64,000 bases of DNA from Escherichia coli (GTDB lineage Bacteria > Pseudomonadota > Gammaproteobacteria > Enterobacterales > Enterobacteriaceae), in the NCBI RefSeq assembly GCF_016026235.1, contig NZ_CP065613.1. One strand, written 5' to 3'. The notes beneath the pieces were generated by a model. It had not been told where the DNA came from and did not search any database. It saw only the letters and a program-made list of their open reading frames with translations. Each line of letters opens with the position of its first letter. The first letter of the stretch is position 1. The translations under genes and the position numbers were made by a program. Of the stretch, positions 1 through 64,000 are shown piece by piece.

Positions 1-164
1 ATGCGGGTCATGAAGTTACCAGAACCACTTGAACCAAACAGCGTAGCGGAAGCGCCTGCTCCGAAGGAGGCTCCCATATCAGCGCCTTTACCTTGCTGCA
101 GCATGATCAGACCAACAAGGCCAATTGCCACAATAAGGAAAACTACCAAAAGAGCTTCGTACAT
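1..164 (-). CDS. secG: Preprotein translocase subunit SecG, N-terminal part; gene runs off the window start
   Basis: Minus-strand ATG at 164..162 translates MYEALLVVFLIVAIGLVG...; absent from the ORF track because truncated by the window edge; synteny upstream of glmM. Confidence 0.8.
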   Translation of the reverse strand, partial: MYEALLVVFLIVAIGLVGLIMLQQGKGADMGASFGAGASATLFGSSGSGNFMTR

Positions 165-344
165 AATCAACCTGTTCCTTGCGGAGTTGCCGCGTACCAA
201 TGCTTCAACCAATAAAGCGGGAGTTTTTAATCTTTCCCACTGAAGCGGGTGTGAATACTAACCAAAGCGAATGACCTTCGCAAGGGCAATTTTATCGCAT
301 TGTATCAACTGCGGAAAAAAACAGCAAAACCGATGTGTTCGCCG

Positions 345-370
345 AGAAAAAAGGCGACAATCGCCGCCTT
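345..370 (-). terminator. Rho-independent terminator downstream of glmM
   Basis: Plus-strand aaggcgacaa/tcgccgcctt hairpin at 351..370 preceded by an A-run at 347..350, which gives hairpin plus U-run on the minus-strand transcript. Confidence 0.6.
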
Positions 371-391
371 TTTAGCCAGTTATCTAACGCT

Positions 392-1729
392 TTAAACGGC
401 TTTTACTGCATCGGCGATGCGGTGTGCAAATTCAGTCACCTGCGCTTCGTCTTCGCCTTCCACCATCACGCGAATTAACGGTTCGGTGCCGGATTTACGC
501 AACAGCACACGTCCACGGCTACCCAGCGCCGCTTCAACTTCTGCGGTCACGGCTTTAACTGACTCATGCTCAAGCGGATCGCCGCTACCTGCGGTGTAAC
601 GCACGTTTACCAGGATTTGCGGGAACATTTTCATGCCGCTGCAAAGGTCGTGCAGGCTCATATGGTTACGCGCCATCGCCGCCAGCACCTGCAAACCAGC
701 AACGATGCCGTCACCGGTAGTGGTTTTATCCAGCAGGATCACATGACCGGAATTCTCTGCACCGATACGCCAGCCTTTCTCCTGCATTTTTTCCAGTACG
801 TAGCGGTCACCCACTTTCGCGCGCGCAAATGGAATACCTAACTGTTTCAGCGCCAGTTCAAGCCCCATGTTGCTCATCAATGTACCCACAGCGCCACCAC
901 GCAGCTGGCCCTGACGAAGACCTTCACGCGCGATGATATACATGATCTGATCGCCATCGACTTTATTGCCTTCATGGTCAACCATAATCACGCGATCGCC
1001 GTCGCCGTCGAAGGCAATACCGAGATCCGCTTTTTCAGCCAGCACACGAGCCTGGAGCGCGCGAACGTCGGTAGCCCCCACTTCGGCATTGATGTTTACA
1101 CCGTTTGGCTCACAACCGATAGCGATAACATTCGCTCCCAGTTCGCGCAGCACGTTCGGCGCGATGTGATAAGTCGCACCGTTTGCGCAATCCACCACAA
1201 TCTTCAGTTCACTGAGGCTAAGTTCGTTCGGGAACGTGGCTTTGCAAAACTCGATATAGCGACCCGCAGCATCAACGATACGGCTGGCTTTACCCAGTTC
1301 TGCCGAATCAACACAGCTGATCTCTTTTTCCATTTCCGCTTCGATGGCTTCTTCAACTGCATCCGGCAGCTTAGTACCGTCAATAGAAAAGAATTTAATG
1401 CCATTATCGTAGAACGGGTTATGCGATGCAGATATCACAATTCCGGCCTCTGCGCGGAAGGTACGCGTCAGATAAGCCACGGCCGGTGTTGGCATCGGGC
1501 CAGTGAAGAGTGCGGAAAGGCCCGCAGCCGCCAGCCCCGCTTCCAGTGCTGACTCCAGCATATAGCCAGAAATACGCGTGTCTTTACCAATAATAATCTT
1601 ACGGGAGCCGTGGCGCGCCAGCACTTTACCCGCGGCCCAACCCAGCTTAAGCACAAAATCAGGTGTGATCGGCGCATCCCCTACACGACCACGAATCCCA
1701 TCGGTACCGAAATATTTACGATTACTCAT
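392..1729 (-). CDS. glmM: Phosphoglucosamine mutase
   Basis: ORF track 445 aa, [17 protein letters not shown]... with SASHNP active-site motif; ATG at 1729..1727. Confidence 0.95.
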
Positions 1730-2570
1730 AGCGTTTGTTTTCCTTTGCAGACAGAGTGGCTTCCACCACCCGCATCGCTTCTACGGTTTCTTTGACGTCA
1801 TGAACACGAATGATGTGCGCGCCTTGCATTGCGGCAATGACCGCACAGGCCAGACTACCGCTCAGGCGCTCGGACGGCCCCACGTTCAGCAGCTGCCCAA
1901 TCATCGATTTTCGTGACATACCCACCAACAGCGGCAGGTTGAAATGGTGAAATTCAGCCAGGCGCGCCAGTAATGAATAGTTATGGGAGAGATTTTTACC
2001 GAAACCGAATCCGGGGTCGAGCAACAATTTCTCTTTTGCGATACCCGCCTGCTCGCAACGTGCTATTTGCTCAATAAAGTAGCGATTCACTTCTGCAAAG
2101 ACATCGTCATACTTCGGGGCTTCCTGCATGGTTTTTGGATTTCCCTGCATATGCATCAGACAAACCGGTAAACCGGTTTCTGCAGCCGCCTCCAGAGCGC
2201 CAGGTTCGGAAAGGGAGCGGATATCGTTAATAATGTGAGCGCCAACTTTCGCTGACTCACGGATGACTTCTGGTTTGGATGTATCGACCGAGATCCAGAC
2301 TTCGAAGCGTTGAGCAATTGCCTCAACCACAGGAATAACACGTTGCAACTCTTCTTCAACGCTAACTTCCGCCGCCCCTGGGCGCGTGGACTCGCCACCA
2401 ACGTCAATGATCGTCGCGCCAGCGTTGATCATCAGATTCGCATGTTTCACCGCATCTATCAGCGAGTTATGCGTGCCACCATCCGAAAAGGAATCAGGCG
2501 TGACGTTGAGGATCCCCATTACGTGAGGATGGCTAAGGTCCAGTGAAGTGCCCTGGGCAAAGAGTTTCAT
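1722..2570 (-). CDS. folP: Dihydropteroate synthase
   Basis: ORF track 1722..2636; trimmed to the ATG giving [28 protein letters not shown]..., 282 aa; overlaps glmM start by 8 nt. Confidence 0.93.
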
Positions 2571-2659
2571 GGTGTTATCCCTGGTATGAATTGATAAGAA
2601 AAAACCCCGGAGCACGCCCCGGGGTTTTCGGTACAAATACAGTCATCTGATGCGGGAAC

Positions 2660-4594
2660 TTACTTGTCGCCTAACTGCTCTGACATGGTGTTACCCGGGT
2701 TCGGCGTACGCGGTTCATCAACCGGACGAGGAGCCTTTGGACTACCATTGTCGCCAGAATTGTTAGAAGCGCCTGGTTCTTCCCAGCCCGCTGGCGGACG
2801 TACATCGCGACGTGCCATCAGGTCATCAATCTGCGGTGCGTCGATAGTCTCATATTTCATGAGAGCATCTTTCATCGCATGCAGAATATCCATATTGTCG
2901 GTCAGAAGCTGACGCGCACGATTATAGTTACGCTCAATCAGTGCTTTCACTTCCTGGTCGATGATACGTGCAGTTTCATCGGACATATGTTTCGCTTTCG
3001 CTACGCTACGGCCGAGGAACACTTCACCTTCTTCTTCCGCGTACAGCAGTGGACCCAATTTCTCAGAGAAGCCCCACTGAGTCACCATGTTACGTGCCAG
3101 GTTGGTCGCAACTTTAATATCGTTGGACGCACCGGTAGAAACATGTTCCGGCCCGTAGATGATCTCTTCTGCCAGACGACCACCGTACAGCGTAGAAATC
3201 TGGCTTTCCAGTTTCTGACGGCTGGCGCTGATTGCGTCGCCCTCAGGCAAGAAGAAAGTCACACCCAGCGCACGACCGCGTGGGATAATCGTCACTTTGT
3301 GCACCGGATCGTGCTCCGGCACCAGGCGACCGATAATCGCATGACCCGCTTCGTGGTAAGCCGTCGATTCTTTCTGCGCTTCCGTCATCACCATGGAGCG
3401 ACGTTCCGCACCCATCATGATTTTGTCTTTCGCTTTCTCGAACTCAACCATCGACACAACGCGTTTGTTGCCACGAGCAGCGAACAGTGCCGCTTCGTTC
3501 ACCAGGTTCGCCAGGTCAGCACCGGAGAAACCAGGAGTACCACGGGCAATGATTGCCGCGTCGATATCGGGTGCCAATGGTACGCGACGCATGTGAACTT
3601 TCAGGATCTGCTCACGACCGCGAACATCTGGCAAGCCGACCACAACCTGACGGTCGAAACGGCCAGGACGCAGCAGGGCTGGGTCGAGAACGTCCGGACG
3701 GTTAGTCGCGGCGATAACGATGATACCTTCGTTACCTTCGAAGCCATCCATCTCAACCAGCATCTGGTTCAGAGTCTGTTCACGTTCATCGTGACCACCG
3801 CCCAGACCTGCGCCACGCTGGCGGCCTACGGCGTCGATTTCATCGATAAAGATGATGCACGGTGCCGCTTTCTTCGCCTGTTCGAACATGTCACGAACAC
3901 GGGATGCACCCACACCGACGAACATTTCTACGAAGTCAGAACCGGAGATAGTAAAGAACGGAACTTTCGCTTCGCCTGCAATCGCTTTCGCCAGCAGCGT
4001 TTTACCGGTACCTGGAGGACCGACCATCAGGACGCCTTTCGGGATCTTACCGCCGAGTTTCTGGAAGCGGCTCGGCTCGCGCAGATACTCAACCAGTTCA
4101 GCAACTTCTTCTTTTGCTTCGTCGCAGCCCGCAACGTCAGCAAAGGTCGTTTTGATCTGATCTTCCGTCAGCATGCGCGCTTTGCTCTTACCAAACGACA
4201 TGGCACCTTTGCCACCGCCGCCCTGCATTTGACGCATGAAGAAGATCCAGACACCAATCAGCAACAGCATCGGGAACCAGGAGATGAAGATAGAAGCCAG
4301 CAGGCTTGGTTCTTCAGGCGGTTCACCGACAACCTTGACGTTCTTGGTCAACAGGTTATCCAGTAATTTCGGATCCTGAACCGGAATGTAAGTGGTATAA
4401 CGGTTACTATCTTTCTTGGTAACGTTGATTTCACGTCCGTTGATACGCGCTTCACGAACCTGGTCGTTATTGACCTCTTGTAGGAAGGTAGAGTAATCCA
4501 CCTTACGGCCATTAGACTCGCTGGGCCCAAAGCTCTGGAATACTGACATCAGCACAACGGCAATGACCAGCCAGAGTATTAGGTTTTTCGCCAT
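2660..4594 (-). CDS. ftsH: ATP-dependent zinc metalloprotease FtsH (HflB)
   Basis: ORF track 647 aa; trimmed to [13 protein letters not shown]..., 644 aa; Walker A GPPGTGKT and HEAGH zinc motif present. Confidence 0.95.
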
Positions 4595-4693
4595 GTCACT
4601 CAAGGGATTAACCTCTTATTACAACTGTGTTAAAAACAGCGTCAGGATACTCTATATCCAGCATCTTTCAAACTTTCGTCTGAAATCTCCCGG

Positions 4694-5323
4694 TTAGGGT
4701 TTACGCCCGGTCGCTACAATATACACTTCCCGCGAACGTGCACGAGAAGAGTCCGGCTTACGAACTTTGACCTTCGTAAACAGGGAGCGAATTTCCCTTA
4801 GATACTCATCGAAACCTTCGCCCTGGAACACCTTCACTACAAAACTGCCACCTGGCGCTAATACATCACGACACATTTCTAGCGCCAGTTCCACCAGATA
4901 CATGGCACGGGGGATATCCACCGCCGGTGTTCCGCTCATGTTTGGTGCCATATCGGACATGACAACCTGGACTTTGCTGTCGCCAACGCGCTCCAGCAGT
5001 GCTTTCATCACCAGTTCATCACGAAAATCGCCCTGAAGAAAGTCCACACCAACGATAGGATCCATAGGTAAAAGATCGCAAGCGATGATGCGGCCTTTGC
5101 CGCCAATTTGGGTGACCACATATTGTGACCAACCACCCGGAGCAGCACCAAGGTCGACAACCGTCATTCCCGGTTTAAAGAGTTTGTCACTTTGCTGTAT
5201 TTCATCAAGTTTAAACCAGGCACGGGAACGTAACCCCTTTTTCTGTGCCTGTTGAACATATTTATCGCTAAAGTGTTCCTGAAGCCAGCGGCTGGAGCTG
5301 GCAGAACGCTTCTTACCTGTCAT
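4694..5323 (-). CDS. rlmE: 23S rRNA 2'-O-ribose U2552 methyltransferase RlmE (FtsJ)
   Basis: ORF track 209 aa, [42 protein letters not shown]...; synteny upstream of ftsH. Confidence 0.95.
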
Positions 5324-5448
5324 TTAACTTTCCCATGGGGATAACTCATCGTAACCAATTGCGTAAATTTTTACGCGCCTATTTGGTGATATATGGGAGA
5401 TGGCGGTAGAATGACCCGTTTTCAATCCCAACGTAAGCAAAAAATACG

Positions 5449-5742
5449 ATGAATCTGAGTACTAAACAAAAACAGCACCTGAAAGGTCTGGCACATCCGC
5501 TCAAGCCAGTTGTTCTGCTTGGCAGTAATGGTTTGACCGAAGGGGTGCTGGCCGAGATTGAACAAGCGTTAGAGCACCATGAACTCATCAAGGTGAAAAT
5601 CGCCACCGAAGATCGCGAAACTAAAACCTTGATCGTGGAAGCTATCGTGCGCGAAACCGGCGCCTGTAATGTACAGGTCATCGGTAAAACGCTGGTGCTT
5701 TATCGCCCAACTAAAGAACGTAAAATCTCGCTGCCACGCTAA
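5449..5742 (+). CDS. yhbY: RNA-binding protein YhbY (CRS1/CRM domain)
   Basis: ORF track 97 aa, MNLSTKQKQHLKGLAHPLKPVVLLGSNGLTEGVLAEIEQALEHHELIKVKI... Confidence 0.93.
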   Translation: MNLSTKQKQHLKGLAHPLKPVVLLGSNGLTEGVLAEIEQALEHHELIKVKIATEDRETKTLIVEAIVRETGACNVQVIGKTLVLYRPTKERKISLPR

Positions 5743-5830
5743 GATTATCCTAAAGTTACACACATTTGCTGTGTAAAACGAGGGGTTTTCCGCAGGCAGG
5801 AGAGCAAAATGCCACGCTCTGTTCGTTGAT

Positions 5831-5857
5831 AAAAGGCCGCATAGCGGCCTTTTTCCT
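5831..5857 (+). terminator. Hairpin terminator between convergent yhbY and greA
   Basis: aaaaggccgc-ata-gcggccttttt: GC stem with flanking A-run and T-run. Confidence 0.6.
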
Positions 5858-5897
5858 TTCTTTACAATACATCAACATCTTGAGTATTGGGTAATTC

Positions 5898-6374
<477 letters not shown>

Positions 6375-6621
6375 TTGTTATACCTCTTGAATATTCCTGA
6401 TGGGGCAAGTCTTCACCCACCCCGGCTGTTCGGCCTGCCCGGCATAACTCCTCACCGGGACCAGAAGCAAAAAAATACCGACCCAGGTACAAGTCCCAGG
6501 TCAGCTACAATTCACATTTTGATAGTCATTTTACCCTGAAGTTCCCGAAGGGTCATCGTTTACTTTATAGGGCGTTGCGCCGTAGTATGACGGCTCGATT
6601 CCAGGTTGTTAGCGCGAGATT

Positions 6622-8055
6622 ATGCGATTTTCCAGATTTATCATCGGATTGACCAGCTGTATAGCGTTTAGTGTTCAGGCCGCAAATGTTGATGAGTACA
6701 TTACTCAACTCCCCGCTGGTGCCAACCTTGCCCTGATGGTGCAAAAAGTCGGCGCGTCGGCCCCCGCTATTGATTACCACAGTCAGCAGATGGCGCTGCC
6801 CGCCAGTACGCAGAAAGTGATTACTGCGCTGGCGGCGTTGATTCAACTCGGCCCCGATTTTCGTTTCACCACGACGCTTGAAACCAAAGGCAATGTGGAA
6901 AACGGCGTACTTAAGGGTGACTTAGTGGCGCGATTTGGTGCCGATCCGACGTTAAAACGTCAGGATATTCGCAATATGGTCGCGACTTTGAAAAAATCTG
7001 GCGTCAACCAAATTGATGGCAATGTGTTAATAGATACCTCCATTTTCGCCAGCCACGATAAAGCCCCCGGCTGGCCATGGAATGACATGACACAATGCTT
7101 TAGCGCTCCGCCTGCCGCCGCCATAGTTGACCGCAACTGTTTCTCCGTCTCGCTCTACAGTGCCCCAAAACCTGGTGATATGGCTTTTATACGCGTGGCA
7201 TCTTATTACCCCGTTACGATGTTCAGCCAGGTACGCACCCTCCCCCGTGGTTCTGCCGAAGCGCAATACTGCGAACTGGATGTCGTACCAGGCGACCTGA
7301 ACCGCTTTACGCTAACGGGATGCCTGCCGCAACGTTCTGAGCCGCTCCCGTTGGCTTTTGCCGTGCAGGATGGAGCCAGCTATGCCGGGGCAATTCTGAA
7401 AGATGAGTTAAAACAGGCAGGTATCACCTGGAGCGGAACACTGCTGCGCCAGACTCAGGTTAACGAACCTGGAACGGTAGTTGCCAGTAAACAGTCGGCC
7501 CCGTTGCACGATCTGCTTAAGATTATGCTGAAAAAGTCGGACAACATGATCGCCGATACGGTTTTCCGCATGATAGGCCATGCGCGCTTCAATGTGCCTG
7601 GAACATGGCGGGCCGGGTCGGACGCCGTGCGTCAGATCCTGCGCCAGCAAGCCGGTGTCGATATTGGAAACACCATTATTGCCGATGGTTCAGGGCTTTC
7701 GCGGCATAACCTGATTGCCCCCGCCACCATGATGCAGGTGCTGCAATACATTGCCCAACACGACAATGAACTTAACTTTATCTCCATGCTGCCGCTGGCG
7801 GGCTATGACGGCTCTTTGCAGTACCGTGCAGGTCTGCATCAGGCGGGCGTGGATGGAAAAGTCTCAGCGAAAACCGGTTCGTTGCAGGGGGTATATAACC
7901 TGGCGGGATTCATTACCACAGCGAGCGGGCAACGAATGGCGTTTGTACAATATCTTTCTGGCTATGCAGTAGAACCGGCGGATCAGCGTAATCGCCGTAT
8001 TCCGTTAGTGCGTTTTGAAAGCCGTTTGTATAAAGATATTTATCAGAACAATTAG
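6622..8055 (+). CDS. dacB: D-alanyl-D-alanine carboxypeptidase/endopeptidase DacB (PBP4)
   Basis: ORF track 477 aa, MRFSRFIIGLTSCIAFSVQA signal peptide and STQK active-site motif; TAG stop at 8053..8055. Confidence 0.95.
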   Translation: MRFSRFIIGLTSCIAFSVQAANVDEYITQLPAGANLALMVQKVGASAPAIDYHSQQMALPASTQKVITALAALIQLGPDFRFTTTLETKGNVENGVLKGDLVARFGADPTLKRQDIRNMVATLKKSGVNQIDGNVLIDTSIFASHDKAPGWPWNDMTQCFSAPPAAAIVDRNCFSVSLYSAPKPGDMAFIRVASYYPVTMFSQVRTLPRGSAEAQYCELDVVPGDLNRFTLTGCLPQRSEPLPLAFAVQDGASYAGAILKDELKQAGITWSGTLLRQTQVNEPGTVVASKQSAPLHDLLKIMLKKSDNMIADTVFRMIGHARFNVPGTWRAGSDAVRQILRQQAGVDIGNTIIADGSGLSRHNLIAPATMMQVLQYIAQHDNELNFISMLPLAGYDGSLQYRAGLHQAGVDGKVSAKTGSLQGVYNLAGFITTASGQRMAFVQYLSGYAVEPADQRNRRIPLVRFESRLYKDIYQNN

Positions 8056-8069
8056 TCAAAAAGAAACCC

Positions 8070-8082
8070 CGGCACATGGCCG
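8070..8082. repeat. Target-site duplication, left copy (cggcacatggccg), flanking IS4
   Basis: Identical 13-mer directly abuts both IS4 termini, at 8070..8082 and 9508..9520. Confidence 0.85.
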
Positions 8083-9507
8083 TAATGCCAGTCAGTTAAG
8101 CAACTGACTGGCTCTTTTTCGGGGCTGTGGGGTATTTCCAGGGCCTCTCCTTTACCACTCTCGGGAAGGCCCTTCCCCTTCTCGTCGGTAATTTCACAAG
8201 TTGTCCCATACTTGCAAGATCGCGCATCAGCTCCGGTATACGTCCCGGTGAAGCGCCCTGCAATGTCATCAGCATTCTCATCACCATTCCGCATGATTCT
8301 GAGAAACTCAGTTGATTCGGCCAGTAACCTTTCAGATGTTCCGCCATTTTAATCATCTGATATCTCACCAGATTATAAGCCAGTAAGACACCCCACAGCT
8401 CTTGCTCCACAAGCTCCGGCTTTTTACTTCTCAGCGTCAGCCTGCTCAGTTGCATCGTCTGTTTTATCTCCCTGTATCCCAGTTCGATTTCCCAGCGATG
8501 ACTGTACAGATCCGCCATTTCTCCTCCGGGGAAGCGCATGGCGTCCGTCATCGACGTCAGCAGATGGCAGACTTTTCCTTTGCGCGTCACGGTCAGCAGG
8601 CGGGCTGTCACTTCATTTCCCAGTCCCGGCCACTTTTTTCGTGCCTGCGGGCTGGTTTTCAGCTTCACCAGATGATCGCCTTTACCCAGTTTTCTGAGCT
8701 CTTCATATTGCGCTCCCTTTCTGAGAGGTATCATCCAGTGGCGGTGTTCTCCCGCCAGGCTCCAGGCATTTAACAGTCCCAGTGAGTAATAACCTTTATC
8801 CATTAACGTCAGAGTGTTATCGCCGGTTTGTTCTATAAGTTGCTCAGCAAGCTCATTTTCGCTGTTCTTCATCGTGCCGAAGGCTGCAGCCGTCAGCAGA
8901 TGGCTGGTCAGTTCCATCTGGCAGACCATTTTGACCTGCGGGTAGAGCGCCGGGTTCCCGGCATGTGTCTGGCGGGGAAGGCTGCATCGTTCTCTGGTGT
9001 ATCCGGTGTGCGCCAGAACACACCATCGATGGCCAGCAGGGTCAGGCCGCACCAGTGCGGATGCGGCGTGGCGTTATGCCAGAGCTGCGCTGTTTTCGTG
9101 AACACGCGGCGGACAGCCTCACTTCCCAGGCGCTGGCGGGCCTGAATAACGGCACTGGGGGCAACGAAGGGGCGATTGCCCGGCAGCATGATGTCCAGGC
9201 GATTCACAATCTGGTGAAGAGGTTCTTTACGCTCAAGCGCCATGCCAACAATACACCAGACCATCATTTCGAGGGGAAGACGGCGCTTGCGTAGCGTTAC
9301 AGTACCTGATTCGGCAAGGCAACGAGAGATGAGTTCGGGGTCGAGGTAATCCCCCAGAGAAGTCAGTGGGTTACGCAGAGAATCGTAACGGGATACCAGA
9401 TCAAGAGCCTGTCCAATGTGCATAAAAAAATCCGGAAACAAGTGAGCGTTTCCGGATTCTTACACAGCCACTGGATCGGTCAACTGATCCTTAACTGATC
9501 GGCATTA
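8083..9507 (-). mobile_element. Insertion sequence IS4 (IS4 family), 1425 bp, transposase gene disrupted
   Basis: Termini taatgccagtcagttaag at 8083..8100 and ttaactgatcggcatta at 9491..9507 are imperfect inverted repeats; internal ORFs translate to IS4 transposase InsG; flanked by a 13-bp direct repeat. Confidence 0.92.
8096..9423 (-). pseudogene. insG: IS4 transposase InsG, frameshifted: N-terminal part in one frame, remainder in another
   Basis: ORF 8908..9441 gives MHIGQALDLVSRYDSLRNPL...ENDAAFP then changes frame; ORF 8096..9052 continues [17 protein letters not shown]... to KKSQSVA; frames switch at a G4 run at 8974..8977 (C4 on the coding strand). Confidence 0.85.
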
Positions 9508-9520
9508 CGGCACATGGCCG
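9508..9520. repeat. Target-site duplication, right copy (cggcacatggccg), flanking IS4
   Basis: Identical to 8070..8082; removing the IS and one repeat copy restores the hairpin aaaaccccggc-acatg-gccggggtttt. Confidence 0.85.
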
Positions 9521-9532
9521 GGGTTTTGCTGA

Positions 9533-10720
<1,188 letters not shown>

Positions 10721-29527: not shown

Positions 29528-29648
29528 GTGCGGCCTGAAAAACAGTGCTGTGCCCTTGTAACTCATCATAATAATTTACGGCGCAGCCAAGATTTCCCTG
29601 GTGTTGGCGCAGTATTCGCGCACCCCGGTCTAGCCGGGGTCATTTTTT
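29528..29648 (+). ncRNA. arcZ: Small regulatory RNA ArcZ (SraH/RyhA)
   Basis: Sequence GTGCGGCCTGAAAAACAGTGCTGTGCCCTTGTAACTCATCATAATAATTTACGGCGCAGCCAAG... ends in the hairpin caccccggtctagccggggtc plus T6; lies between elbB and arcB, convergent with arcB. Confidence 0.9.
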
Positions 29649-58142: not shown

Positions 58143-60110
58143 TTAACTATCAGTCAACGCATGTTGATACTTATGGAGCATCCCCGCCAGCCGATGTACC
58201 GGTTCCGTCACCTGCGGTGGCGCTTGCCAGATGCGTAGCTTTTCCTGGTAGATTTCAAGTTCTTCCAGCAACTGGCCAAAGTACCGGCGACGTTTATCAT
58301 CGCTACGGGCAGATATCACATGGTCTGCTGTGCGGCGCATTTGTCGGTGAAACGCCGATAAATCCTCGTTAACCGGGATCGGCGCATCACGCAGGCGCTG
58401 GTGCGCGATAATCATCGTCAGCGCCAGGCGAAATTTCGGCAAATCCCCTGGGAACTTATTCATCAGCAAAAACAGCTGCTGATAAAGTGCCGGGAGGTGG
58501 TTCTCTTTACGACGTGCCACATTGGTAGTCATCGCGGAAACAGCGGCAGAAACAAACTGATTAAGCAGTACACGTCCAGTCCTGTCGCGCGATTTATCCC
58601 GCACCAGCAAAATAACGGTGAACGCGAGCACACAGCCGACGATTTGCCCTAATGCGCTGTCGAGAAACTGACTGAAATGGAAAGTCATCGGGTTATCAAG
58701 CACGATAATATTTATGGTGCTGGCCAGTGCCCCCATCGAGCCCAGTCGCCGTTTCTGTACTTCTATACCGAGGAAGAATCCCAGCACTGCCAGGCTAATA
58801 CACAGCAGCAACATGGTCTGTTGGGTATTAGGGATAATCACCAAAAAGTAAAGCAGCCCTAACGGCAGCGCTGCCAGCGTCCCGTAGATAAAGTCGATCG
58901 CCACCATGCGTGGATTCGGCAAACGCATTGCCAGTGACGTCACTACCGCAATCATCACCATTGCACCACTGCCGGAAGTCCAGCCCGTCCACAGCCAGAA
59001 AAGCGTGCCCAGAATGCAGGAAAGTGTGGTTCGCCAGAAGTTAACCATCGCATGATGACGTTCGGCTGACTCTACTTTGACTTCCGGTTCGCCTTGCAGG
59101 ATCTCTTCTTCGGTGGCGTTGATTTTTGTGTTACTGATAACGCCGCGCTTGAGAAGCTGATAACGCGTTGCCGCCGCGACCCAGCTATAAATGGTGACAG
59201 GCGTTTCCCGTTCCCCGGTCCAGGCGATAACTCTCCGCAGGCGTTTGAGCTGCTTGTGAACGTCCTGCGCGGTTTCTACCGGCGTATCAAAAAATTCGCG
59301 GAAAGTATCAGTGATCAATTCTGGGCGCGTATTCTGAATAAGATAAGTTTCGCAGGATTGGGTAATCAGCGTCAGCGATAGCGTATTGATCGCTTTTAAA
59401 CGTCGATTGGCCCGCGCCCAGCGGGAAGATTCCATATTCAGATTGCTGCGCATGCCTTGTAGCGCCGTGGTGCGTCGAACCAGGTCGCCCCAGGCCTTAT
59501 CAACAATCTCGCCATCACCATGTTTGATGCATAATTGCATTAGTTGATATTGCGCCACCAGCAAACTTTCCAGCTCTCGATCCACTTCTTGTTTGATCGA
59601 TCGCGGAGAAAAGAGCAGATCCGCCATAATCGCACACACAATACCGATAACGATCTCGCTACAACGTTCGACGGCAAACTGCGGCGTAAGAAGCGGTTCC
59701 GGCTGAATGGTGATCACAATGATCAGCGCGGTATAACCAGCCAGCCCCCACGCATACGAGTTTTCTATTCGTACCAGCGAGGATATCCAGGTACAAAAAC
59801 CGGCCCAGATACAGCACACCAGAATCATCAATAATGGTGCGCGGATCATCGCAATGATGATCACCAGTCCGGCAATACAGCCAATAAATGTGCCGATGAT
59901 GCGCAAAAAGCCACGATAGCGAATAGCGCCAGAATACGGTTCACCTCCCGCAGCAAAGGCCGGACCGGCAGCAACAATCGCCGCTGTCAGTACCGCCCAG
60001 CGTGGCGTTTCCAGCTGGAAGTGAAAGCCAACAAACAGCGCCAGTACAATGGCGGTCGCCAGTTTTACCGCAAAGCGAATATGTTGGTTAGCAATGGAGA
60101 AAATACCCAT
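58143..60110 (-). CDS. aaeB: p-Hydroxybenzoic acid efflux pump subunit AaeB
   Basis: ORF track 655 aa, [61 protein letters not shown]... Confidence 0.93.
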
Positions 60111-60115
60111 CGTGA

Positions 60116-61048
60116 TTAACCAAACTCACGCAGGCGATGGGCCATTTTACGGAAGAACGAATCCTGGCTTTCGTCGCGATCTTGTTTGCCAGTGACCACC
60201 ACTGTAGCAGTGGTGCCCGCAGGCCAGATGTTCTCTTGCTGGTTGTCGAGACGAATACGAACCGGAACACGTTGCGCCAAACGCACCCATTCAAGGTTAG
60301 AGTCGATGGTCGCCATCCCTTTGTCGTCACGCGTGCTGCTGGCGTTGGTGACCCCAGCGGCAACACTATCAACAGTCCCTTTCAGCACTTTGTTACTGCC
60401 AAGCGGCGTGATCTCTGCACGATACCCAGGGCGCACCCCTTCCAGCTTAGTTTCTTCCATATAGGCCAGTACATAGAAAGAGTTCTGTTTCACCAGCGCA
60501 ACCGCCGTTGATCCACGAGTAATAAACTCACCGGTATAGACATTGAGGTTGGTCACCCAGCCATCCGCTGGCGCGCGGATCACCGTGCGTTCAAGATCCA
60601 GTTTTGCCAGATCGCGGGTCGCCTGCGCTTTCGCTAACTGATGCAGAACAGTTTGTAGTACGTTGTTGGCCTAGTCGATCTCTTCGCGAGACATCACCTG
60701 CACACCGAGACGGTTACGACGTCCGGCCTCCTGGCGTTTCTCCTGTGCCAGTACCTGATAATAAGCAACATCGGCTTGCGCTTCCTCAAGCGCCTTTTGA
60801 TAGCGCGGCTGGTCGATGGTGAACAGTACCTGTCCTTTTTTCACCAGCTGGTTATCATGAACATTCACCTGGGTAATGAGTCCAGAAACGTCCGGCGCGA
60901 TCGCAACGACGTCAGCGCTAAAGCGCGCGTCACGCGTCCACGGGGATTCGGTGTAATAGACCCAGGCATTAAAAATTGCGATGAAGGCCAGAATGACTAA
61001 TACGACCGTGATGGCCGTACGGGAGAATTTTCTTATTAGTGTTTTCAC
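60116..61048 (-). pseudogene. aaeA: p-Hydroxybenzoic acid efflux pump membrane-fusion subunit AaeA, interrupted by an in-frame amber codon at codon 126
   Basis: The 933-nt frame (311 codons) is intact except for TAG at 60671..60673 on the minus strand; ORF track splits it into 60671..61048 ([26 protein letters not shown]...SREEID) and 60116..60583; same-frame translation between them reads [38 protein letters not shown]. Confidence 0.85.
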
Positions 61049-61055
61049 TTCAACC

Positions 61056-61259
61056 TCAAACGAACAGTCGCGATATCAAATAAAACAAGCAGCAATAGAG
61101 CGCGGTGTTGAACAACGCCGGATGCCAGACAAAGTCGTAGATACCTGTTGGCACAAGTACCCGGCGCACCAGCCAGAAAATCGCCAGTGATAAAAGCAAT
61201 TCAAAAAATATCGGTGGGAAGGACAGCCCAAACACCACGATAACGGGAAACAGACTCAT
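61056..61259 (-). CDS. aaeX: Small membrane protein AaeX
   Basis: ORF track 61056..61328; trimmed to the ATG giving [50 protein letters not shown]..., 67 aa. Confidence 0.9.
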
Positions 61260-61441
61260 GTTGACCTTGGTTGTATAGAGAGAGCAGGCGTTATTATTTT
61301 CAGCATCTGTCGCCGCAGAGAAGGGCATGGAAAGCCGGGCGAGAGCAACATTGCTGTAGATTGATATTTAATATATTAGCGTAACTGTTATGCTGTTATC
61401 TATATTATGTGATCTAAATCACTTTTAAGTCAGAGTGAATA

Positions 61442-62371
61442 ATGGAACGACTAAAACGCATGTCGGTGTTTGCCAAAGTAGTTGAATTTGGCTCTTTTAC
61501 CGCCGCCGCCAGACAGCTACAGATGAGCGTTTCGTCCATCAGTCAGACGGTGTCAAAACTGGAAGATGAGTTGCAGGTAAAGCTGTTAAACCGTAGCACA
61601 CGCAGCATTGGCCTGACCGAAGCCGGTAGAATTTACTACCAGGGCTGCCGTCGTATGCTTCATGAAGTGCAGGATGTTCATGAGCAACTGTATGCCTTCA
61701 ATAACACCCCCATCGGGACGCTACGCATTGGCTGTTCTTCAACTATGGCACAAAATGTTCTCGCCGGGCTGACAGCCAAAATGCTGAAAGAATACCCAGG
61801 TTTGAGCGTCAATCTGGTTACCGGAATTCCAGCCCCCGACCTGATTGCCGACGGTCTGGATGTGGTGATCCGCGTCGGCGCGTTGCAGGATTCCAGCCTG
61901 TTTTCCCGCCGTCTTGGCGCGATGCCAATGGTGGTGTGCGCCGCGAAAAGCTATCTCACACAATACGGCATACCGGAAAAACCCGCCGATTTAAGTAGCC
62001 ATTCATGGCTTGAATACAGCGTGCGGCCCGACAATGAATTTGAACTGATTGCACCGGAAGGGATCTCGACTCGCCTGATCCCGCAAGGGAGATTTGTGAC
62101 TAATGATCCGATGACGCTGGTGCGCTGGCTAACGGCGGGTGCCGGGATCGCCTACGTGCCGCTGATGTGGGTGATCAACGAGATCAATCGTGGGGAGCTG
62201 GAGATCCTGCTGCCGCGTTATCAGTCAGATCCACGCCCGGTTTATGCGTTATATACCGAAAAAGATAAGCTGCCGCTGAAGGTACAGGTCGTGATCAACT
62301 CGCTGACGGATTATTTTGTTGAGGTCGGTAAATTGTTTCAGGAGATGCACGGGCGCGGGAAAGAGAAGTAA
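61442..62371 (+). CDS. aaeR: LysR-family transcriptional activator AaeR
   Basis: ORF track 309 aa, MERLKRMSVFAKVVEFGSFTAAARQLQMSVSSISQTVSKLEDELQVKLLNRSTR..., LysR HTH. Confidence 0.94.
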   Translation: MERLKRMSVFAKVVEFGSFTAAARQLQMSVSSISQTVSKLEDELQVKLLNRSTRSIGLTEAGRIYYQGCRRMLHEVQDVHEQLYAFNNTPIGTLRIGCSSTMAQNVLAGLTAKMLKEYPGLSVNLVTGIPAPDLIADGLDVVIRVGALQDSSLFSRRLGAMPMVVCAAKSYLTQYGIPEKPADLSSHSWLEYSVRPDNEFELIAPEGISTRLIPQGRFVTNDPMTLVRWLTAGAGIAYVPLMWVINEINRGELEILLPRYQSDPRPVYALYTEKDKLPLKVQVVINSLTDYFVEVGKLFQEMHGRGKEK

Positions 62372-62414
62372 TTCATATTGTACTGTTACGTTGTACAAAC
62401 CTGTGCCAACGGGT

Positions 62415-62447
62415 TCCCCTCACCCTAACCCCAGAGGAGCGAGGGGA
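62415..62447. repeat. GC-rich imperfect palindromic intergenic repeat, copy 2 (aaeR-tldD spacer)
   Basis: tcccctcaccctaaccccagaggagcgagggga shares both arms with the copy at 44570..44600. Confidence 0.6.
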
Positions 62448-62498
62448 CCGTTCGTGCACGTAGAAAGATTAATTATCCTACTGAAAATAATGAAATTA

Positions 62499-63959
<1,461 letters not shown>

Positions 63960-64000
63960 TTAGTTACTGCAGTAGAGGATTTTTTACGGCTGCCGGATGC

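Follow-up and report, generated by a model that had tools for sequence, protein, structure and literature searches.

Why does an insertion sequence lie inside the hairpin shared by two convergent genes, and what becomes of the transcripts that were meant to end there? This question is raised by the dacB/obgE junction in a 64,000-nt stretch of Escherichia coli DNA (the window, meaning the whole stretch that was analysed), where a 1425-bp copy of IS4 occupies positions 8083-9507 between the two genes. The reading favoured here, with a probability of roughly 0.88, is that IS4 transposed by target preference into the terminator-type hairpin shared by dacB and obgE, that the event was recent and strain-specific, and that the transcripts of both genes likely still terminate. 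The element and its immediate surroundings are laid out as follows.

6622..8055, + strand: dacB (477 aa), the left flanking gene (ORF, and annotation in matching E. coli records)
8070..8082, no strand assigned: left 13-bp target-site duplication, CGGCACATGGCCG (sequence, repeat search)
8083..9507, - strand (that of the transposase): IS4 element, 1425 bp (nucleotide identity)
8083..8100, no strand assigned: terminal inverted repeat at the transposase-distal end, TAATGCCAGTCAGTTAAG (16/18 against the other end)
9490..9507, no strand assigned: terminal inverted repeat at the transposase-proximal end, CTTAACTGATCGGCATTA (repeat search, K-12 alignment)
9508..9520, no strand assigned: right 13-bp target-site duplication (sequence, repeat search)
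9533..10705, - strand: obgE/cgtA (390 aa), the flanking gene on the right, which converges with dacB (ORF, and matching records)

The element starts with TAATGCC and ends with GGCATTA, and its 18-bp terminal inverted repeats (TAATGCCAGTCAGTTAAG against TAATGCCGATCAGTTAAG) match at 16/18 positions. At the nucleotide level it is 99.9% identical to copies annotated as 'IS4-like element IS4 family transposase'; of 5426 complete E. coli genomes, 2686 carry such copies. Against the K-12 insG element the identity is 99.5%, the seven differences being six substitutions and one missing base. When the one missing G is restored, the transposase is 442 aa long, differs from K-12 InsG at four residues, scores 303.8 bits against NCBIfam NF033592 (transpos_IS4_1; cutoff 115), matches both Pfam PF13006 (Nterm_IS4) and PF01609 (DDE_Tnp_1), and contains the YREK motif (Y-2-R-3-E-6-K). 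The unrepaired gene is not a single uninterrupted ORF, being split into parts of 171 aa and about 277 aa. The element is thereby confirmed as IS4 (IS4 family, IS4 subgroup), carrying all of the defining features save the intact ORF. The two copies of the 13-bp direct repeat are identical, and no other copy of CGGCACATGGCCG was found on either strand of the 64-kb window; the occupied-site junction reads CCGGCACATGGCCGTAATGCCAGTCAGTT. An earlier note, made from the letters alone, had placed an IS4 of 1425 bp with these termini in the dacB/obgE spacer and had proposed a 13-bp target-site duplication, and its assignment, boundaries and duplication all hold.

The K-12 IS4 is like the window copy in having 18-bp inverted repeats that match at 16/18 positions, a duplication of 11-13 bp, and an A-run and a T-run as target arms, the K-12 copy lying in aaataggc[ATCTTGGTTCTG]gtgttt. 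Like the window copy after repair, it encodes a 442-aa DDE transposase with Nterm_IS4, DDE_Tnp_1 and the YREK motif. It is unlike the window copy in length (1426 against 1425 bp), since the window copy is without one G at 8970-8973 and its transposase is split; in the six substitutions, which amount to four amino-acid changes after repair; and in its locus.

The empty site was built in silico by removing IS4 and one copy of the repeat. With a 600-nt query, the reconstructed junction was found as a single piece, at 600/600 identity, in E. coli FDAARGOS_943, an IS-free relative whose junction is the one that the earlier note had predicted. Among the matches listed, FDAARGOS_943 is the closest relative found. 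Where it is listed as a match, over window positions 1-8082, 9521-34000 and 58501-64000, its identity is 99.9-100%; over 34001-58500, where it is absent among the matches listed, its coordinates allow a roughly collinear stretch. With a probe of 77 nt across the junction, built in such a way that it could not be spanned by the K-12 allele, the empty junction of the 39-nt spacer allele was seen in about 3456 of the 5426 complete E. coli genomes. The occupied site was found in 0 of these 5426 genomes, an annotated collection without Shigella, and the exact left IS4 junction had no match among metagenome contigs. Judged from these comparisons, the insertion is recent and strain-specific, because the site is empty both in the 5426 genomes and in the near-identical FDAARGOS_943; the earlier proposal that it is a strain marker is upheld on the same count. 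IS4 is abundant in Shigella. The site may be occupied in relatives outside those compared, Shigella genomes included, since the searchable annotated collection is without Shigella.

The short spacer that had been supposed for K-12 proved to be incorrect. There the dacB-obgE spacer is 185 nt, comprising the same hairpin and, directly after it, a 146-nt REP/BIME-like block, which we take to be REP-type sequence by the REP consensus. This block stands in place of the hairpin's T-run in K-12-type genomes. The spacer of the window lineage, at 39 nt, is the other common allele.

Could the element be a repeat misplaced during assembly? IS elements are a classic source of misassembly, and this junction was seen in no other genome. 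However, exact IS4 ends together with a perfect 13-bp duplication of a sequence present once in the empty allele form the signature of transposition, unlike a collapsed or misjoined repeat. An assembly artefact is accordingly considered highly improbable, and a genuine transposition into the dacB/obgE spacer is the reading retained.

What IS4 interrupted is a hairpin, of which the two arms now lie on either side of the element.

8063..8073, no strand assigned: left arm of the split hairpin, gaaaccccggc, parted from its partner (sequence, empty-site fold)
9517..9527, no strand assigned: right arm of the split hairpin, gccggggtttt (sequence, empty-site fold)

The restored empty site reads gaaaccccggc-acatg-gccggggtttt, beginning 7 nt after the dacB stop and, on the obgE strand, 5 nt after the obgE stop. 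The + strand RNA folds with 10 Watson-Crick pairs and one G·U (-25.2 kcal/mol, z = -5.7), and the - strand RNA with 10 pairs (-22.0 kcal/mol, z = -4.2). The hairpin described in the earlier note is therefore real, and IS4 does split it, but its stem is not the perfect 11 bp that had been stated, the left arm being gaaaccccggc and not aaaaccccggc. The U-tract of the obgE-sense strand, UUUCUUUUU, is good; that of the dacB-sense strand is weak, with only UUUU followed by GCUGAUU. Thus, the empty site is built like a bidirectional intrinsic terminator, predicted to be the stronger for obgE. Its strength for dacB at the original site is uncertain, because the U-tract of the + strand has only four U. 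After the insertion, the remnants on each side amount to a 4-bp stem, at -5 to -6 kcal/mol no more stable than shuffled sequences.

Whether IS4 landed in this hairpin by chance was addressed by comparing its target sites. To 15 E. coli IS4 sites were added 67 left ends of IS4, taken from genomes representative of their species (Budvicia, Yersinia, Kosakonia, Silvania, Dryocola, Buttiauxella, Rosenbergiella, Pectobacterium and others) and 20 more IS4 copies found via exact-protein look-ups; the scan of species-representative genomes for IS4 ends returned no Escherichia records. The 75 unique left flanks, drawn from E. coli and from many other Enterobacterales, were found to have A at 73-88% at positions -20 to -17, to be C-rich at -12 to -9, and to have G at 71-76% at -4 and -1. 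AAA occurs at -23 to -14 in 88% of them, compared with 12.6% of random positions (p = 2e-49), and 36% have the duplicated stretch enclosed by a 4-bp stem, compared with 1.4%. Duplication length at the 31 complete sites is 12 bp (n=15), 13 bp (n=10), 11 bp (n=5) or 14 bp (n=1). A left-hand AAA and a right-hand TTT occur together at 21/31 of these sites, compared with 1.6% of random ones, and the commonest spacing between the arms is N18-19. The window has AAA-N19-TTT; the consensus given by Mayaux et al. in 1984 is reportedly AAA-N20-TTT. Empty sites reconstructed from 22 complete sites fold with a median of -17.1 kcal/mol, compared with -9.5 kcal/mol for random sequence (p = 1e-5). Terminator-type IS4 sites elsewhere include rpoD/mug, pdxK/crr, tdk/adhE, aroA/ycaL and a site downstream of 5S rRNA. 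Overall, IS4 sits in terminator-like sequences made up of an A-run, a GC-rich stem-loop and a T-run, as observed across the 75 flanks and 31 sites.

The alternative, that IS4 inserts at random and met the terminator by coincidence, draws on some copies that lie in coding sequence without strong hairpins (bcsG, ygeA and a phage tape-measure gene). Yet even the intragenic sites retain the A-run and T-run arms. The flanks are far from random, in the A-run as in the joint presence of both arms; the folding energy of the empty sites departs from that of random sequence; and at crr/pdxK two different IS4 subtypes were found at the same position with the same duplication. Coincidence is already largely refuted by these observations and is given hardly any weight. 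[quoted passage not shown] No paper explicitly tying IS4 to terminators was found in the open-access literature. As a cause of the terminator landing, target preference had gone unmentioned in the earlier note.

Many IS4 copies elsewhere were observed to match the window for about 25 nt past both IS ends, which pointed to the copy at aroA/ycaL. This copy (e.g., in NZ_CP064847) is like that of the window in its 13-bp duplication, whose core is very similar (CGGCAATGTGCCG; CGGCACATGGCCG in the window), and in lying within an AAAA...TTTT terminator-type hairpin at a gene 3' end, in the same register to the arms (aaaaaaaacgc[CGGCAATGTGCCG]acgtttt). It is unlike the window copy in that the genes are tandem rather than convergent, the locus is another one, and the transposase is intact (G5). 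Further afield, IS231A, also of the IS4 family, was reportedly described by Hallet et al. in 1994 to make a duplication of about one helical turn and to favour a GC-rich dyad core between A/T tracts, its target choice being said to depend on the flanking arms and on DNA shape. IS231A is nevertheless a different element, with a Bacillus host and a different consensus. Bacterial class C group II introns home to intrinsic terminators, a low-cost 'safe haven' after genes. Unlike IS4, they retrohome by means of an RNA and a reverse transcriptase, and their insertion point lies downstream of the hairpin and not within it; the parallel is one of analogy only.

The mechanism proposed for the dacB/obgE site can be outlined from these features. 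IS4 would have moved by cut-and-paste into the hairpin common to the convergent dacB and obgE. Staggered cuts 13 bp apart would have fallen on either side of the loop and the upper stem, and CGGCACATGGCCG would have been doubled in the repair. The element prefers an A-run, about 3 nt, a GC-rich and often palindromic core of 11-13 bp, about 3 nt and a T-run, and the dacB/obgE site was probably chosen because bidirectional terminators have this very layout. The host hairpin is destroyed, down to its 4-bp remnants, with IS4 supplying what may be its replacement, an inward-facing hairpin and T-run at each end. The structures concerned are the following.

8087..8119, + strand: inward-facing terminator-like hairpin (11 bp, 4-nt loop), then TCTTTTT (terminator scan, fold)
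9419..9461, - strand: hairpin (14-15 pairs) and U7 immediately upstream of the transposase ATG, terminator-like from the obgE side (inverted repeat, folds)
9456..9483, - strand: promoter-like site, TTGACC, 16-nt spacer, TG-AAGAAT (promoter scan; putative function)

The left-end hairpin lies 5 nt inside the element, and on the - strand the right-end hairpin and its U7 occupy the stretch 46-88 nt in from the right end. Transcripts of dacB are predicted to stop at the former, about 25 nt further downstream than before, and transcripts of obgE at the latter, about 70 nt further downstream than before. Termination of both is probably kept, because an inward-facing hairpin and T-run is present at each IS4 end. 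The right end has a further property. The only promoter-like site in IS4 has its -10 hexamer within the 5' arm of the 9419-9461 hairpin, so that native transposase transcripts would be without that arm. The predicted native 5' end folds weakly (-7.3 kcal/mol, no better than shuffled sequences), and in the predicted fold of RNA reading through from obgE the full hairpin is formed. Such a layout would keep external transcription out of the transposase gene and, at the same time, give the host gene a terminator again.

A contrary reading, which takes up the functional suggestion of the earlier note, holds that IS4 materially removes the insulation between dacB and obgE, with read-through leading to antisense interference or to altered stability of the essential obgE message. 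In keeping with such an effect, all that is left of the 10-11-bp hairpin is 4-bp remnants, whose folding does not surpass that of shuffled sequence. Moreover, the left-end hairpin has no U-run on the - strand, so that transposase or read-through RNA could run antisense into dacB. The incoming host transcripts nevertheless each face a terminator-like structure, dacB the canonical hairpin and TCTTTTT of the left end and obgE the 14-15-bp hairpin and U7 of the right end, and many healthy strains carry IS4 in terminators beside rpoD, aroA and rrn 5S. Material loss of insulation is thus judged unlikely. Retained termination, with probably little loss of insulation and an expected phenotypic effect that is small, remains the preferred reading.

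The transposase gene of this copy was found to carry a frameshift, which the earlier note had missed.

8970..8973, no strand assigned: G4 run, a 1-nt deletion relative to the canonical G5 (alignments)
8096..8929, - strand: C-terminal transposase fragment with the DDE domain, in a different frame from the N-terminal part (ORFs; equivalent 277-aa gene with PF01609)
8908..9423, - strand: N-terminal transposase fragment, 171 aa, Nterm_IS4 (PF13006), ending at a premature stop (ORF, K-12 alignment)

Alignment with canonical IS4 places the deletion at G4 in place of G5, which shifts the frame near codon 150 of 442. Programmed recoding was considered as a rescue of the frame and rejected, the 165-nt overlap of the two ORFs being free of X_XXY_YYZ heptamers, with runs that do not exceed C4. 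If the deletion is real, the copy would be non-autonomous, movable only with transposase from another IS4.

Is the missing G genuine, or is the copy intact and autonomous with a homopolymer error of sequencing or assembly? The latter is suggested by the identity of the element, the gap aside, to intact copies (L106, L112 and EIEC copies), by the scarcity of G4 among IS4-bearing E. coli records from complete genomes (17/2564), and by the insertion sites at glgP and crr/pdxK, each of which has G5 in one assembly and G4 in another; the lack of a recoding signal points the same way. On the other side, the exact 171-aa frameshift product is recorded in 200 blocks of a large protein collection (in 76 cases on contigs shorter than 2 kb), a run of five bases is short for a systematic error, and two copies in one genome, L098 and L099, have G4 together with a common private SNP. 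Error is a serious minority explanation, held to be somewhat less probable than a real deletion.

Taking the deletion as real, the distribution of G4 bears on how such copies arise. The 171-aa product also occurs in the IS-rich 4.5-5 Mb genomes CP026810, CP026824, CP026834 and CP026845, probably of Shigella. Copies with G4 elsewhere are 1-4 SNPs from the window copy, several having duplications of their own, and in CP026845 intact IS4 copies of the same subtype co-occur with G4. Spread in trans of a defective G4 copy, as a single lineage, is partly supported, since it fits the separate duplications, the common private SNP and the co-occurring intact copies. In-situ mutation, gene conversion or homopolymer/assembly error are possible sources of G4 as well, because the same sites occur with G5 elsewhere.

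The rest of the window was found to be collinear with E. coli in single pieces, and no other insertion was found within its 64 kb. Its Rfam matches are only the greA leader and ArcZ, and no tRNA genes were found in it. Its ObgE, YhbE, GreA and YhbY proteins are all common alleles, each present on at least 1000 contigs, and an exact-protein look-up of a 318-aa ORF gave no record.

What does this locus add to the understanding of IS4? The event is an ordinary insertion of a known element at a known type of preferred site, a consolidation and not a discovery, because arm-specific targeting has already been described for the IS4 subgroup. A broader reading, tentative and on balance doubtful, would make IS4 a terminator-seeking insertion sequence across Enterobacterales, with the 'terminator-swap' as its safe haven and with the G4 variant spread in trans in IS-rich, Shigella-like genomes. 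If this were true, IS4 would read the A-tract/GC-stem/T-tract, cut round the top of the stem and substitute its own inward terminators, the transposase-proximal one also blocking activation of the transposase by read-through. For the strain itself, the insertion is a clean marker, its site being empty in the complete E. coli genomes compared, including a relative 99.9-100% identical. The terminator shared by dacB and obgE can, it appears, be broken without obvious harm. The targeting of terminators by IS4, together with the inward terminators that it would bring, may help to explain why the element is tolerated beside rpoD, aroA, rrn and obgE.

Two alleles of the dacB-obgE spacer were found in E. 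coli, a 39-nt form and a 185-nt K-12-type form. The 39-nt spacer, consisting of the hairpin and a T-run, is carried by about 3456 of 5426 genomes, and is the allele into which the IS4 copy of the window is inserted. In the K-12-type spacer, a 146-nt block of REP/BIME-like sequence directly follows ...ggccgggg in place of the T-run. The K-12-type allele has therefore lost the right-arm T-run preferred by IS4. The two forms are located as follows:

Window 8056-8082 plus 9521-9532: 39-nt spacer allele
L026 (the K-12 record) 3428-3573, corresponding to NC_000913.3 about 3330427-3330572: 146-nt block of the K-12-type spacer

At the left junction of the element with the host, a composite structure is predicted on the - strand (window 8040-8125; -29.2 kcal/mol, z = -3.6). 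In the modelled fold, CCCC in the IS4 end (8121-8124) can base-pair with the GGGG that lies in the left arm on the host side. The repeat remnant and the hairpin of the IS end are then enclosed, with UUUCUUUUU coming after the structure. By chance, such a structure might terminate transposase transcripts that run out of IS4 towards dacB.

The G5-to-G4 frameshift of the window's transposase gene (8970-8973) was seen again in many IS4 copies of IS-rich genomes, which are probably Shigella (copies L094-L103 and L106-L115 compared). CP026845 carries intact IS4 copies together with G4 copies, and at the glgP and crr/pdxK insertion sites assemblies disagree over the identical site, one showing G5 and the other G4. 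The recurrence of G4 may be due to a defective lineage mobilized in trans, gene conversion, recurrent slippage or assembly error.

The crr/pdxK intergenic region is also occupied by two IS4 subtypes, 5 SNPs apart, in different genomes (copies L014 and L106), at exactly the same position and with the same 12-bp duplication (CGCCGATGGGCG). This suggests that a hot spot was used more than once, independently, or that gene conversion took place between IS copies. Matching flanking duplications were absent at five copies (L012, L063, L094, L095 and L096), each of which probably arose when two IS4 copies recombined, in an IS-mediated rearrangement or deletion.

An exact 30-nt IS4 end was also present in two records attributed to non-enterobacterial taxa, CACSKA010000024.1 ('Chryseobacterium sp. 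18061'; L090) and a 1403-bp contig of an Oscillospiraceae MAG (L093). Contamination or a mis-binned enterobacterial IS4 contig is the likely source, rather than a real host range.

Elsewhere in the 64-kb window, two Rfam matches were obtained:

Window 6470-6591, - strand: greA leader (124.9 bits)
Window 29528-29635, + strand: ArcZ sRNA (120.8 bits)

Both are to be expected in this part of the chromosome; no further Rfam match and no tRNA gene was found in the window.

The closest relative, E. coli FDAARGOS_943 (NZ_CP065615.1), is 99.9-100% identical to the window across most of its length, and lacks the dacB/obgE IS4. It carries another element, which is missing from the window:

L104 (FDAARGOS_943, NZ_CP065615.1) 5140-6330: annotated 'IS4-like element ISEc60 family transposase', between folP and ftsH

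Since each strain lacks the element of the other, IS content differs within a few kb.
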